Assembly: GCF_051903065.1 (NCBI RefSeq)
Contig: NZ_CP178438.1
Direction: 5' to 3' (one strand)
DNA: 64,000 nucleotides
Origin: Escherichia coli
Lineage (GTDB): Bacteria > Pseudomonadota > Gammaproteobacteria > Enterobacterales > Enterobacteriaceae
Shown here: piece by piece, positions 19,285-54,158 of the stretch
How positions within the stretch are numbered: position 1 is the stretch's first letter
Layout: the number at the start of each line of letters is the position of its first letter
Translations under genes and position numbers: made by a program
The notes under the pieces: generated by a model
Told to the model about the DNA's origin: nothing
Databases searched by the model: none
Seen by the model: only the letters and a program-made list of their open reading frames with translations

Positions 19285-19337
19285 GCTGAAACGGATGGCC
19301 TGATGTGACGCTGTCTTATCAGACCAACAATTGAACT

Positions 19338-19354
19338 CTTAAGGTTCACTTAAT
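19338..19354 (+). promoter_or_regulatory. PmrA/BasR box upstream of pmrR
   Basis: CTTAAG-gttca-CTTAAT, an exact match to the YTTAAK-N5-YTTAAK direct-repeat consensus, about 45 bp upstream of the pmrR ATG. Confidence 0.7.
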
Positions 19355-19398
19355 CTCTGACGCGCATACTCTCCTCCAGGTTAACGGAGGAGAGTGCA

Positions 19399-20564: not shown

Positions 20565-21233
20565 TTAGTTTTCCTCATTCGCGACCAGCATATAGCCAAA
20601 GCCGCGCACGGTGCGGATACGGGCTTTGCCCACTTTGTCGCGCAGATTGTGGATATGCACTTCCAGGGTGTTGGTCGAGGGTTCATTGTCCCAGTTATAG
20701 ATGTCGTTGTAGAGAATTTCCCGATGCACCGGACTGCCTGCTTTGAGCATTAACCGTGACAGCAGAGCATATTCTTTGGGCGTCAGAATCAACTCTTCAC
20801 CGCCCATCCATACCTGACGCCGACCCATGTTCAGCGTCAGATTGCCAACAATCAGCTCACTTTCGCCCTGATTATTATGGCGTCGTAGCAGGGCGCGGAT
20901 ACGGGCATGTAACTCTTCCAGCGCAAAAGGCTTCACCAGATAGTCGTCGGCACCGACATCCAGCCCGGCGATTTTGTCGGTCAGCGTATCGCGAGCGGTG
21001 AGGATCAGTACCGGCAGGGTATATTTTTTCTGCCGGATACGGGCGAGAAAATGCAGTCCATCTTCGTCGGGTAACCCTAAATCCAGTACCACCAGGCTGT
21101 AATGACCTGCCTCAAGGCTTTGTTCCGCCATCCGCGCGGTTGTCACGCCATCGCACGCGTAGCCTTCGGTTTGCGCCGCCAGAATCAGTCCCTGCAATAA
21201 CAGCGTATCGTCTTCAACAATCAGAATTTTCAT
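20565..21233 (-). CDS. basR: Response regulator BasR (PmrA), OmpR family
   Basis: 222 aa; receiver domain plus winged-helix C-terminus. Confidence 0.93.
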
Positions 21234-22873
21234 TCACTCACTCTCCTGCAAGTTTGCAGAATATCATCCGCAGCCTGGTAATACTTCGTCTCAACGCCAG
21301 TTAATCCCAATAGCGTGGAGAATAAATTGTCTTGTGAATAGTGTTGCGTTTGCGCCTGTTTTTGCAGGCAGTTCTGGTCAACCTGATACCGTTTTTGATA
21401 ATCCTCCGACAGCCACAGCAGCATCGGCACCTGTTTTTGGCTATCCGGGGCGATGGCATAAGGCAGACCGTGCAGATAGATGCCATTTTCACCTAACGAT
21501 TCACCGTGGTCAGAAAGATAAACCAGGCTGGTGGTAAATTTATCCTGATGTTCTTTCAGCAGATTAATCGCTTTATCAACAATATAGTCGACGTAAACCA
21601 GCGTGTTGTCGTAAGTGTTCACCAGTTGCTCTTTGGTACAGGTCTGGATCTCATTGGTGTCGCAGGTTGGGGTAAATTTCCTGAACTGCGGCGGATAGCG
21701 GTTGTAATAGGTCGGACCGTGGCTGCCGATGGTGTGTAAGACAATCACGCCATCACCCTGCAGGTTATTGATGTACTCTTCCAGCCCGTGGAACAGCACT
21801 TCGTCATAGCATTCGCCGTTGATGCACTGACCAGGCAGATTCAGCGCGGTGACGTTCTGGTGAGGCACGCGGTCGCAGGCACCTTTACAGCCCCCATCGT
21901 TGTCATTCCACAGCACGTTGATGCCCGCTCGCTGAATGATATCCAGCACGCCTTCCTGGTGCTGTGCCAGCTCTTCTTTGTAATGCTCACGCGGCATATC
22001 CGAGAACATGCACGGTACTGAAACTGCCGTTGCCGTGCCGCAAGATGCGGTATTAGGGAAATAGACCACGTTATCTTTCGCCAACCGCGGGTTAGTTTCA
22101 CGCGGGTAGCCGTTGAGGGAGAAGTTCTCCGCCCGCGAGGTTTCGCCGACAATCAGGATGGTCAAATTTTTACGTTTTTCGTTCTGCATTAACGGGTTGC
22201 GGTGCGCGTCTTCACCAATTCGCACCAGCGGCAGATTTGCCAGTCGCTGATGGGAGTACCATGACCAGCTGGCAACAATGCTGTTAGAGGGGCTTAAGGA
22301 CTTCACCAGCTCTTTGTTGTTGCGGAACAACGAGGCGTAGTCTTTATAAAATAGTGCGGCGACCAGCAAAATCAGCAGTACAGAAACCAGAATATTGGCT
22401 CCACGGAAAAGAACACTGCGCAGACGCGAGGTGGCAGGTTTGATTTTTATCCAGCAGGCAATCAGCGCAGCAAGCACGCCGCTGAATCCCAGCGTTAATA
22501 ACATTTGCGGTGTCATCAACGCATAACTTTCTGCCGGAGTGGTATCAATAATATTGGCAATCATCGAGCGGTCGATGACGATGCCGTAAGTCATTATGAA
22601 ATATTGTGCAGCCGCGCCAACCAGAATAAACAGGCAGGCCAGCGGTCGATTAAGCCATAAGAAAGAGCTTAGTGTCAGGACAATATTAATCACGCTGAAG
22701 GCGACGACCGGCATCGACAAGAAAACCAGTACGTTATGCAGCGAGTCCAGCGGCAGCGCCTGCAACACCTGTTTAAAAAAGGCAATATTCAGGCAGATAG
22801 AGATATAAAAAGCGGCCAACAATAGCCAGGCGAGTAAATTCAAAGAGGGTCTTTTTAGTAGGCGCTTCAACAT
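21230..22873 (-). CDS. eptA: Lipid A phosphoethanolamine transferase EptA (PmrC)
   Basis: 547 aa from [14 protein letters not shown]; N-terminal membrane helices plus sulfatase-like domain; overlaps basR start. Confidence 0.92.
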
Positions 22874-22919
22874 CACGGTGTTTCCATCGAACAAAGTGCG
22901 CATATGCTCGCAAAGCAAA

Positions 22920-22952
22920 ATTAAGCCAACCTTAAGTTCTTAAGGTTGGCTT
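22920..22952 (-). promoter_or_regulatory. PmrA/BasR box for eptA inside a perfect 14-bp inverted repeat that may also act as the adiC terminator hairpin
   Basis: Minus strand reads CTTAAG-gttgg-CTTAAT about 47 bp upstream of the eptA ATG; plus strand shows aagccaaccttaag / cttaaggttggctt arms followed by a T-run. Confidence 0.65.
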
Positions 22953-22976: not shown

Positions 22977-24314
22977 TTAATCTTTGCTTATTGGTGCATC
23001 TAAGGGATACGGGTTTTTATGCAGCCGGTTGTAATTCAGCGCATACATGGCGGTGATGACCATCAGGGTGACAAATGACCACATAACCTCTTTCGCCCCG
23101 GACCCCACCACGGCCCAGATGCAGTAGAGGAAGGCAATGGTAGTAACTGCCAGATATGCCGGGCGTGCTTTACCAAAGTGACCGTGTCCGAGCAGCAGTA
23201 ACGCCGCACAGGTGTAAAGATATGGCACCAGTGTAAAGATGACCGACACGGAAGAAACCAGACCGAATTCTTTGGTCGCGTTTGGTGAAATGCTGCTGAG
23301 CTGGAAGATGGTCATCAAAATACCGACGATAATCAGCCCCGCCACTGGCGTACCCGCTTTATTTACACGGGCAAAAATCGGTGGGAACAGTCCGTCATCG
23401 GCAGCGGCTTTCGCCGTTTGACCCGCCAGCAATGTCCAGCCGCCCAGTGAACCTAAGCAACCCGCAGCTGCGCAGAAGGAAACAATAGCCCCGGCGGTGT
23501 CACCCAACGCCATCCGTGCGGCATCACCGAATGGCGAGGCAGAAACGCGCAGTGCGGCATTAGGGATCATCCCCATAATCGCGGTGGTGGAGAGCACATA
23601 GCAAACGGCGGCAATCAATACCCCACCAATGGTGGCTATAGGGACGTTGCGTTTCGGGTTTTTCACCACACCTGCGGCAACGGAGGCACTTTCCACACCG
23701 ATGAACGACCACAGCGTAACGTTAAGGGTACTTTGAATTGCACCGAAGGTGCCCAGGCCGCTGACGTTCCATGCCGCCATATAGGTTTCACCACGAAACC
23801 AGAACCAGCCAAATACGGCAATCCCGACGATGGGGATCAGCGCCAGCACGGTGGCAACGGCCTGCACACGGGTGATCATTTTCGGACCGACAATGTTCAG
23901 CAGGACGAAGATCCACAGCACCACGACGCAGGTGATGGTTAATACCAATGGATCTTTCAGAATCGGGAAGAAGTAACTTAAATATCCTACGCCAATGACC
24001 ACCATGGCGATATTGCCGATCCAGCAGGCCAGCCAGTAGAGGACGTTGGTTTGATAACCGAGAAACGGGCCAAAGCAGCGGCGGGCGTAAGCGTAAGAAC
24101 CACCAGGACTTGGGTCGAGGAACGACATTTTGGCGTATACCATCGAGAGCCCCAGCGCACCGATAATCGTCACCAACCATCCATAAATGGCAATCCCGCC
24201 AGTGGAGGCCAGGTTTGCAGGTAACAGAAAAACACCTGACCCCATAATATTCCCCGACACCATCAGGGTGACGGGGATTAAGCCCACTTTGTGAGCATCA
24301 GCATCCGAAGACAT
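22977..24314 (-). CDS. adiC: Arginine:agmatine antiporter AdiC
   Basis: 445 aa APC-family transporter. Confidence 0.93.
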
Positions 24315-40365: not shown

Positions 40366-40440
40366 GAGCTGTAGTTGAGTGGACCCGCTGGTTATCGTGA
40401 AACGAAGCGTCTCTCCTCAAAACTGGATTTGCGGAACGAT

Positions 40441-40470
40441 GAACGAAGCAGTCGCCTGACTGCTTCGTTC
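40441..40470. terminator. Hairpin between convergent ghoT and lysU
   Basis: 13-bp stem gaacgaagcagtc / gactgcttcgttc with a 4-nt loop; no strong U-tract. Confidence 0.45.
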
Positions 40471-40483
40471 ACTAAAGTGAAAT

Positions 40484-42001
40484 TTATTTCTGTGGGCGCA
40501 TCGCCGGGAAGAGAATAACGTCGCGAATAGTATGACTGTTTGTAAACAGCATAATCATTCGGTCTATACCAATACCCAGACCAGCGGTTGGCGGCAGACC
40601 ATATTCCAGCGCAGTCACGTAATCTTCGTCATAGAACATGGCTTCGTCGTCACCTGCAGCTTTAGCGTTAACCTGTTCCTGGAAACGTTCAGCCTGATCT
40701 TCTGCGTCGTTTAATTCGCTAAAACCATTACCGATTTCACGACCACCGATGAAGAATTCAAAACGGTCGGTGATTTCCGGGTTAACATCATTACGGCGCG
40801 CCAGCGGTGACACTTCTGCCGGATATTCCGTAATAAAGGTTGGCTGAATCAGATGTGCTTCTGCCACTTCATCAAAGATCTCCGTGACAATACGTCCCAG
40901 CCCCCAGCTTTTCTCTACCGTAATTCCGATAGATTCAGCTAATGCTTTAGCAGCATCAAAATTATCCAGGTCGGCCATATCGGTTTCTGGACGATATTTT
41001 TTGATTGCTTCGCGCATGGTGAGTTTTTCAAACGGTTTGCCGAAATCAAACACATGCTCGCCATAAGTGACTTTAGTGGTACCCAGAACCTCTTGTGCCA
41101 GGGTGCGGAACAGTGACTCTGTCAGTTCAATCAAATCGTGGTAATCCGCATACGCCATGTAGAGTTCCATCATTGTGAACTCAGGATTATGGCGAACAGA
41201 AATACCTTCATTACGGAAGTTACGGTTGATTTCGAATACCCGTTCAAAACCGCCTACAACCAGACGTTTCAGATACAGCTCCGGCGCGATACGCAGATAC
41301 ATATCTAAATCCAGAGCATTATGATGGGTAATAAACGGGCGAGCAGATGCCCCACCTGGAATTACCTGCATCATCGGGGTTTCTACTTCCATAAAGCCGC
41401 GCGCGACCATGAACTGACGGATAGCGGCCAGAATTTTTGAACGGACAACAAACGTTTGACGGGATTTATCGTTAGCGATGAGGTCCAGATAACGTTGACG
41501 ATAACGGACTTCCTGATCCTGCAGACCATGGAATTTATCTGGTAAAGGACGTAGTGCTTTTGTCAGCAGGCGCAACTCAGTACAGTGAATGGAAAGCTCA
41601 CCCGTTTGCGTCTTAAACAGCGTACCGCGGGCACCGATAATGTCACCCAGATCCCATTTTTTAAACTGATCGTTATAAACACCTTCTGGCAGGCTATCTC
41701 GTGCGACGTACAGTTGAATACGGCCACCGACATCCTGCAACGTTACAAAGGAGGCTTTCCCCATGATACGACGGGTCATCATTCGGCCAGCAACCGAGAC
41801 TTCAATGTTTAAGGATTCCAGTTCCTGGTTATCCTTCGCATCAAACTCTTCGTGCAACTGGTCAGAGGTATGGTCGCGGCGAAAATCATTGGGAAACGCC
41901 ACACCTTGCTGACGTAGTGCCGCCAGTTTTTCGCGGCGATTTCTCAGTTCATCGTTAAAATCAATAGCCTCATTGGCTCCCCGTGTTTCTTGTTCAGACA
42001 T
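40484..42001 (-). CDS. lysU: Lysine--tRNA ligase, inducible form LysU
   Basis: 505 aa from [30 protein letters not shown]; class II aaRS motifs; track ORF begins at an upstream TTG. Confidence 0.92.
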
Positions 42002-42237
42002 TTTGGTTCCTCTAAATCCAGCTTTCAATTTAGCGTAGATAAAGAGACAGATCGGTACACTGTATTATCTGCCTCGACTATTAGTAACTCAGTTTATCTT
42101 ATCGAAACTAACGCTTACCTCAAGTTGATATCACTAATAAATAACCATCAAAATGGTTTAAATGACTTATTAATATCGATTTTCTAGTGTTATAAACTGA
42201 AAGTTAATTTATTCATAACTAATTGTTTTTACGACAG

Positions 42238-43711: not shown

Positions 43712-43740
43712 CAAAAAAGGGAAGTGGCAAGCCACTTCCC
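43712..43740 (-). terminator. Intrinsic terminator of the cadBA operon
   Basis: Hairpin gggaagtggcaagccacttccc followed on the minus strand by six T, just downstream of the cadA stop. Confidence 0.7.
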
Positions 43741-43753
43741 TTGTACGAGCTAA

Positions 43754-49794: not shown

Positions 49795-49828
49795 AACGAA
49801 AAACGGACCTCCGTGGAGGTCCGTTTAT
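49795..49828 (-). terminator. Intrinsic terminator downstream of pheU
   Basis: Hairpin aaacggacctccgtggaggtccgttt with U-rich tail on the minus strand. Confidence 0.65.
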
Positions 49829-54122: not shown

Positions 54123-54158
54123 GAAAAAAGGCACGTCATCTGACGTGCCTTTTTTATT
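54123..54158. terminator. Bidirectional intrinsic terminator between aspA and dcuA
   Basis: Hairpin aggcacgtca..tgacgtgcct flanked by an A-run on one side and a T-run on the other. Confidence 0.75.

Follow-up and report, generated by a model that had tools for sequence, protein, structure and literature searches.

The palindrome between adiC and eptA of Escherichia coli: a BasR box in the eptA promoter and a candidate hairpin at the adiC 3' end

The genes adiC and eptA of Escherichia coli are co-directional neighbors, and the spacer between them contains a perfect palindrome of 30 bp. The locus raises the question of whether this palindrome is part of the eptA promoter, a signal at the end of the adiC transcript, or both.

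The palindrome and its surroundings

The window analyzed here is the whole stretch of 64,000 nt (64 kb) of DNA, which comes from the E. coli chromosome. Its minus strand carries the genes adiA-adiY-adiC-eptA-basR-basS in this order, and proP and pmrR are located on the plus strand. The 501 bp around the site are found in 5412 of 5426 complete E. coli genomes, where they are annotated as adiC and eptA. The eptA-basRS genes lead to the phosphoethanolamine modification of lipid A and to chromosomal polymyxin/colistin resistance, and adiC is part of an acid-resistance system that is induced in conditions overlapping with those of eptA-basRS. Induction of eptA by BasSR is documented (PMC8151780). 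The eptA stop codon and the basR start codon overlap by 4 nt (window 21230-21233), which is the usual sign of translational coupling within eptA-basRS.

The elements of the site, and the comparator in front of pmrR, are as follows.

22977-24314, minus strand: the adiC gene
22977-22979, minus strand: adiC stop codon TAA (read 22979 to 22977), 24 nt upstream of the hairpin
22923-22952: perfect palindrome with 14-nt arms and a 2-nt center; when folded, a 13-bp stem with a 4-nt loop
22945-22952, minus strand: outer part of the arm that is 5' in the adiC transcript, AAGCCAAC; it can pair with the box spacer and the first bases of half-site 2
22939-22944, minus strand: third hexamer CTTAAG (H0), 8 bp upstream of half-site 1
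22920-22936, minus strand: PmrA/BasR box CTTAAG-gttgg-CTTAAT (half-site 1, 22936 to 22931; spacer, 22930 to 22926; half-site 2, 22925 to 22920)
22910-22922, minus strand: U-rich tail after the stem, AAUUUUGCUUUGC in RNA, at about 4335627-4335639 in MG1655; it also separates the box from the -10 element
22904-22912, minus strand: extended -10-like element TGc-GAGCAT, 10 nt downstream of the box, read from the sequence and thus predicted rather than mapped
22897 (+/-2 nt), minus strand: predicted eptA transcription start, placed from the position of the -10 element
22871-22873, minus strand: eptA start codon ATG (first base 22873), 46 nt downstream of the box
19338-19354, plus strand: PmrA box of pmrR, CTTAAGGTTCACTTAAT, the comparator, which has no upstream TTAA partner

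The perfect 14-bp inverted repeat that had been noticed in the original prediction was confirmed by an inverted-repeat search. The two arms (22923-22936 and 22939-22952), each of 14 nt, are 100% complementary and stand 2 nt apart. The palindrome is among the three longest close perfect inverted repeats of the window; arms of 14 nt appeared in none of 40 dinucleotide shuffles of the window, and arms of 12 nt in one of the 40. Of the 5412 complete E. coli genomes with this region, 5386 contain the exact 30-mer. It is thus invariant in 99.5% of them, whereas the flanking 501 bp are at 90-95% identity in 981 genomes. The 5386 genomes contain a median of one and a maximum of two copies, and a REP or other mobile repeat was ruled out as the identity of the palindrome because the 30-mer is single-copy per genome. 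The best hits of an Rfam search with the palindrome region reached 19-23 bits against gathering thresholds of 50-80, and no family was found.

Part of the symmetry is a by-product of the hexamers. CTTAAG is self-complementary and two CTTAAG hexamers lie side by side, which accounts for about 6 bp of it. The non-trivial portion is the outer 8 bp (AAGCCAAC/GTTGGCTT). Another perfect palindrome with 14-nt arms (TGAACGAAGCAGTC-N4-GACTGCTTCGTTCA), as long as the one between adiC and eptA, is located at 40440-40471. It has no T tract and lies 13 nt downstream of a minus-strand open reading frame of 514 amino acids (40484-42028).

The BasR box and the eptA promoter

The PmrA consensus is a direct repeat, (C/T)TTAA(G/T)-N5-(C/T)TTAA(G/T) (PMC10729948, PMC3973317). 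In PmrA promoters, pmrCAB included, the box replaces or overlaps the -35 element (PMC10570014), and yjdB/pmrC is a validated target of the PmrA regulon (PMC1525208). The box of eptA, CTTAAGGTTGGCTTAAT, read from 22936 to 22920 on the minus strand, is comprised of the 3' arm of the hairpin and three further nucleotides; these last three bases (AAT, 22922-22920) fall outside the palindrome. The pattern YTTAAK-N5-YTTAAK is matched twice in the 64 kb, by the eptA box and by the pmrR box, against 0.12 matches expected by chance. The box is followed after 10 nt by a -10-like hexamer at both genes, GAGCAT (22909 to 22904) at eptA and CATACT (19365-19370) at pmrR, and in both hexamers the second base is A and the sixth is T. 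The triplet TGc (window 22910-22912) directly before GAGCAT forms an extended -10 motif, and pmrR has no TGn at this position. The distance between the box and the ATG had been thought equal for the two genes. This is nearly right, as it is the spacing from box to -10 hexamer that is exactly 10 nt in both, but the end of the box is 46 nt from the ATG in eptA and 44 nt in pmrR.

The minus-strand CTTAAG-gttgg-CTTAAT had also been identified as a PmrA box, and this identification stands: the sequence fits the consensus, is in the right place relative to the -10-like element, has a pmrR-like architecture and recurs in the promoters of eptA orthologues. This reading is well supported, and it concerns a box that was known before. 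The site can be assigned with high confidence as the BasR-dependent promoter of eptA, and in E. coli BasR would be expected to bind at 22936 to 22920. Since the eptA mRNA is predicted to start near 22897, it would not contain the hairpin.

A second perfect palindrome, with 10-nt arms (ACTCTCCTCC-N8-GGAGGAGAGT, window 19368-19395), is situated beside the PmrA box of pmrR; a palindrome is thus found next to a PmrA box at both ends of eptA-basRS. The -10-like hexamer of pmrR is overlapped by this palindrome, which also extends over the Shine-Dalgarno sequence of the gene. Seen from the minus strand, about 70 nt separate it from the basS stop codon upstream, and it lacks a U tract. Just after proP (window 19297-19325) is the sequence ggcctgatgtgacgctgtcttatcagacc, which, going by the REP consensus, we take to be REP-like. 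In BL21, sequence on the 3' side of pmrB is reported to be important for resistance to polymyxin (PMC8004244).

Sixty eptA loci were fetched for comparison, and the box was anchored in about 50 of them. Promoter alignment counts refer to 36 unique Enterobacteriaceae eptA promoter architectures. The box is 61-67 nt upstream of the eptA ATG in the approximately 50 anchored Enterobacterales loci, 63 nt in most. Half-site 1, the GTTG and half-site 2 are nearly invariant in the 36 architectures and are recognizable in Pantoea and Tatumella. A hexamer nAnnAT is conserved at the -10-like position in the same 36 architectures, and it is preceded by TGn in 25 of them. The conserved region also includes a third hexamer. 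The TTAA core of H0 is present in 35 of the 36 architectures, whatever the upstream gene, adiC-less loci included, and further upstream than this TTAA there is no conservation across the set. The eptA promoters of Pantoea and Tatumella lack the H0 TTAA. When compared with YTTAAK, H0 fits in 28 of the 36 architectures if read in the inverted orientation, on the opposite strand, and in 13 if read directly.

Only Escherichia, Salmonella and most Citrobacter have adiC directly upstream of eptA. Its place is taken, in the same direction, by a gene of the CofD family in Klebsiella, Kluyvera, Raoultella and their relatives, and by a DUF2238 gene in Intestinirhabdus. Because the TTAA is kept with eptA even where adiC is not upstream, the inner part of the palindrome can be allotted to the eptA promoter; judged by the alignment, it is promoter architecture and not just the complement that makes a hairpin. 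H0 may be a third, inverted half-site for BasR or an alpha-CTD/UP-like contact. The conserved third hexamer is new relative to the literature searched for this report. The palindrome was also considered as an element of adiC alone, and this was rejected: extended arms and the TTAA core occur with CofD-family and DUF2238 genes upstream.

In several Kluyvera loci (L032-L035, L040, L050 and L058) no more than 58-77 nt lie between the end of the CofD-family gene and the eptA ATG. The stop codon of the CofD-family gene there abuts or overlaps the region of H0 and the box, with no hairpin between, which implies read-through into eptA or other means of ending the transcript. Three loci of the set are probably due to contamination or mislabelling. 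One (L025) is labelled Chryseobacterium sp., yet is a CofD-eptA locus of the Enterobacteriaceae type. The other two (L060 and L061) are contigs of 230-250 nt in Comamonadaceae and Methylobacterium assemblies with a translated match 100% identical to E. coli EptA.

The hairpin downstream of adiC and its outer arm

The 30-nt RNA hairpin alone has a folding energy of -17.8 kcal/mol, and the minus-strand RNA of 81 nt one of -28.4 kcal/mol (z = -5.8). A stable stem-loop thus begins 24 nt past the stop codon of a co-directional gene. The stem is AT-rich, with G-C pairs in 5 of its 13 positions. A simple terminator scan, with the rule of 5 T in 8, flags the hairpin on both strands, and any termination would be expected to place the adiC 3' ends within 22910-22922. 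The adiC sense has no uninterrupted U-rich tract right 3' of the stem, as AA interrupts the U tract; by register, the tail reads UUAAUUUUG or AAUUUUGC. A score of the d'Aubenton-Carafa type was computed with modern energies. In the adiC sense nT was 1.3-2.8 and the score ranged, by register, from -9.5 at best to -35.6. The plus-strand version of the hairpin scored +12.9, and three canonical terminators of the window (54124-54155, 49801-49826 and 43717-43742) scored +29 to +44. No entry for adiC or eptA, and no mapped 3' end or transcription start of the locus, was found in the supplements of PMC7815308 and PMC6131387, and a literature search found no paper discussing the overlap of a BasR box with a terminator-like palindrome.

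The original prediction took this strong hairpin to be the terminator of adiC. That claim survives in a weakened form. The hairpin is indeed strong and close behind the stop codon, and its non-box arm is apparently constrained, but its U tract is broken, its score is low even in the best register and the stem is lost in Salmonella. A sub-canonical terminator or a 3'-end hairpin of adiC is plausible from these features.

The AGCCAA of the outer arm does not vary among the loci of Escherichia, C. amalonaticus, C. youngae, C. werkmanii and C. sedlakii. The spacer directly 5' of the AGCCAA is unalignable between genera, and in the alignment of the Escherichia and Citrobacter loci the conservation of the outer arm ends where pairing ends. 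These features suggest that the non-box outer arm is under constraint. In Salmonella and in the C. freundii group the outer arm is decayed; both keep the adiC-eptA order, with a stem that is essentially unpaired. All 12 adiC-linked loci with a short spacer (98-120 nt) have a stem of -14.5 to -21.4 kcal/mol. The 15 adiC-linked loci with an inserted GC-rich or REP-like hairpin, and hence a spacer of 131-147 nt, have stems of -2.3 to -18.0 kcal/mol, with a mean of -9.1 kcal/mol. The nominal P of 5e-5 for the relation between spacer length and stem strength in these 27 loci ignores phylogeny, and they represent perhaps 8-9 independent lineages. The inserted hairpins (-16 to -31 kcal/mol) are found in L007 and L008 of Salmonella, in L011-L015 and L052-L054 of the C. 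freundii group, and in L014, L018 and L019. None of them has a U tract, and in the lineages that carry them the eptA palindrome has decayed in part or completely. The inserted hairpins, which seem to stand in for that of the palindrome, fit the role of a 3' stabilizer at least as well as termination.

Three Citrobacter genomes (L013, L015 and L053) show a two-sided change from C-G to A-U that restores pairing: they have A in the 5' arm together with CTTAAT in the box, which becomes CTTAATGTTGG. The covariation analysis found 88% of the cells paired, the same as in the shuffled control, with a two-sided change at one pair, U.G or G.U wobbles in 12 cells and a frozen box arm. The statistics equal those of the shuffled controls because the box arm cannot vary. 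Extended arms are also found with other upstream genes (L022 and L025). A complete mirrored PmrA box on the plus strand was considered and discarded: the mirrored second half-site varies freely (CTTTTA, CTTATG, CTATTA, CTGAGC and others) and no suitable -10 element follows it.

The reading favored here, to which we assign a probability of about 0.5, is that the upstream arm was extended in Escherichia and Citrobacter and that the hairpin would be a leaky terminator and/or a protected 3' end of the adiC transcript at about 22914-22918. The palindrome could instead be architecture of the eptA promoter only, that is, a third inverted BasR half-site or an alpha-CTD/UP-like contact with its flanks. 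The hairpin would then be incidental, and the adiC transcript would end elsewhere in a Rho-dependent manner or read through. The near-universal TTAA of the upstream arm speaks for this, as it is kept in Klebsiella, Kluyvera and Raoultella with a CofD-family gene upstream, where the hairpin is just -1.5 to -10 kcal/mol. So do the prevalence of the inverted YTTAAK reading, the extended arms of L022 and L025, which travel with eptA and not with adiC, and the poor terminator score in the adiC sense. It leaves unexplained, however, why AGCCAA(C), which is exactly complementary to the box spacer, never varies in Escherichia and Citrobacter when the mirrored second half-site is not conserved, and why the outer arm has decayed mainly where another hairpin was inserted. 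Nor does a reading of the sequence reveal a second -10-like element that would suit a divergent promoter. A promoter role without any role in RNA is therefore considered possible but somewhat unlikely.

The complementarity of the arms might also be kept up by mutation. Quasi-palindrome correction is an established mutational mechanism, and template-switch repair could copy the constrained box arm into the other one, in which case the palindrome itself would be functionless. In favor of this, the box arm is next to invariant and is tracked by the other arm, the lone two-sided change in the three Citrobacter genomes could equally be a templated correction, and the covariation carries no signal of selection. 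Against this, the process would need to have acted repeatedly over the Escherichia-Citrobacter divergence, and it gives no reason why decay tracks the inserted hairpins; stable uncorrected mismatches, C to A, are moreover found in Salmonella, the C. freundii group and C. amalonaticus S646. We consider such an origin improbable. Still less probable, to the point of being very unlikely, is that the palindrome is a plus-strand terminator for antisense transcription from inside eptA toward adiC, or a bidirectional one. The plus-strand tail, UUUUAUCUUUG, is the better of the two, in keeping with the positive score, but no plus-strand gene or promoter-like site feeds the palindrome, the tail varies even within Escherichia (GGCTTATGCG in L002 and L020), and the U.G wobbles of four Citrobacter genomes would become A.C mismatches.

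A working model and known systems

A model for the favored reading may be outlined as follows. Phosphorylated BasR would bind the direct repeat CTTAAG-N5-CTTAAT (22936 to 22920) in duplex DNA. The repeat would replace the -35 element 10 nt upstream of TGc-GAGCAT, and the eptA mRNA would start near 22897. The third, probably inverted, TTAA hexamer (22944 to 22939) would be a conserved part of the promoter and may provide an extra contact for BasR or alpha-CTD. In Escherichia and part of Citrobacter the upstream arm would have been extended (AAGCCAAC) and would thereby pair with the spacer of the box. RNA arriving from acid-induced adiC would fold into the 13-bp hairpin, followed by UUAAUUUUG, and the adiC transcript would be terminated intrinsically, with some leakage, and/or be left with a 3' end that resists exonucleases; this end, at about 22914-22918, would fall within the eptA promoter.

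It had been proposed that a single element both insulates adiC and recruits BasR. The recruitment half agrees with the box reading. The insulation would be partial at best, because an end at about 22914-22918 lies between the box and the -10 element and the adiC polymerases would still cross the BasR site. Bound BasR could itself hinder the adiC polymerases. The adiC gene has its own promoter, strongly induced below pH 5.8 when growth is microaerobic (PMC12826058), and mild acid is a signal for PmrB (PMC1804205), so that transcription of adiC and of eptA would coincide.

A more speculative and rather improbable extension is that the palindrome couples arginine-dependent acid resistance and lipid A modification to each other in both directions. 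Phosphorylated BasR, sitting on the box and on the inverted H0, would block the path of the adiC polymerases or enhance their termination. Heavy adiC transcription, or a cruciform extruded by supercoiling, would in turn strip BasR from the DNA and gate the autoregulation of eptA-basRS. If such coupling exists, one 30-bp element would be read as a protein site, as an RNA hairpin and possibly as a DNA hairpin. If the hairpin sets the leakage of adiC transcription into eptA-basRS, or if H0 tunes BasR autoregulation, the site would add a small, testable layer to a clinically relevant circuit. The RNA role, if true, would make a tidy case of one sequence with an RNA-level and a DNA-level signal; if not, the site is an ordinary, already known activator site with incidental symmetry.

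The site shares with PmrA/BasR promoters (pbgP/arnB, ugd, pmrCAB and pmrR) the two YTTAAK direct repeats, 5 bp apart, which replace the -35 element, and the weak -10 element. The eptA locus is the E. coli orthologue of Salmonella pmrCAB, and its architecture and 10-nt spacing are as at the pmrR of the window. Unlike other PmrA/BasR promoters, that of eptA carries one more TTAA, 8 bp further upstream, and in Escherichia and part of Citrobacter half-site 1 and the spacer have their full complement there, which makes the palindrome perfect. The E. coli arnB sequence quoted in PMC10729948 bears merely a weak resemblance to the third hexamer (ATTAG), and pmrR here is without a partner.

The palindrome resembles intrinsic terminators, bidirectional ones included, in that it forms a stem with a 4-nt loop a short way past a stop codon and is bordered by A-rich sequence on the 5' side and U-rich sequence on the 3' side. 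It differs from them in its long, AT-rich stem, in the AA that breaks the adiC-sense U tract and in a score below those of the three canonical terminators of the window. As with REP/BIME 3' stabilizers, a hairpin stands at the 3' end of a gene, has no good U tract and could block 3' exonucleases. A REP-like GC-rich hairpin fills the same spacer in Salmonella and the C. freundii group, where the palindrome is decayed. Unlike REP/BIME elements, the palindrome is single-copy and AT-rich and has no REP consensus. OmpR-family regulators with inverted repeats exist, an example being the CusR/HprR box, and H0 and half-site 1 likewise form an inverted pair of the same hexamer. In contrast to that type, PmrA is structurally documented in head-to-tail arrangement on direct repeats (PMC10570014), and a BasR contact with H0 is putative. 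With respect to all of these systems, a box embedded in a palindrome, together with a third hexamer and possibly a role in RNA, amounts to a modest refinement of known kinds rather than a new type of element.
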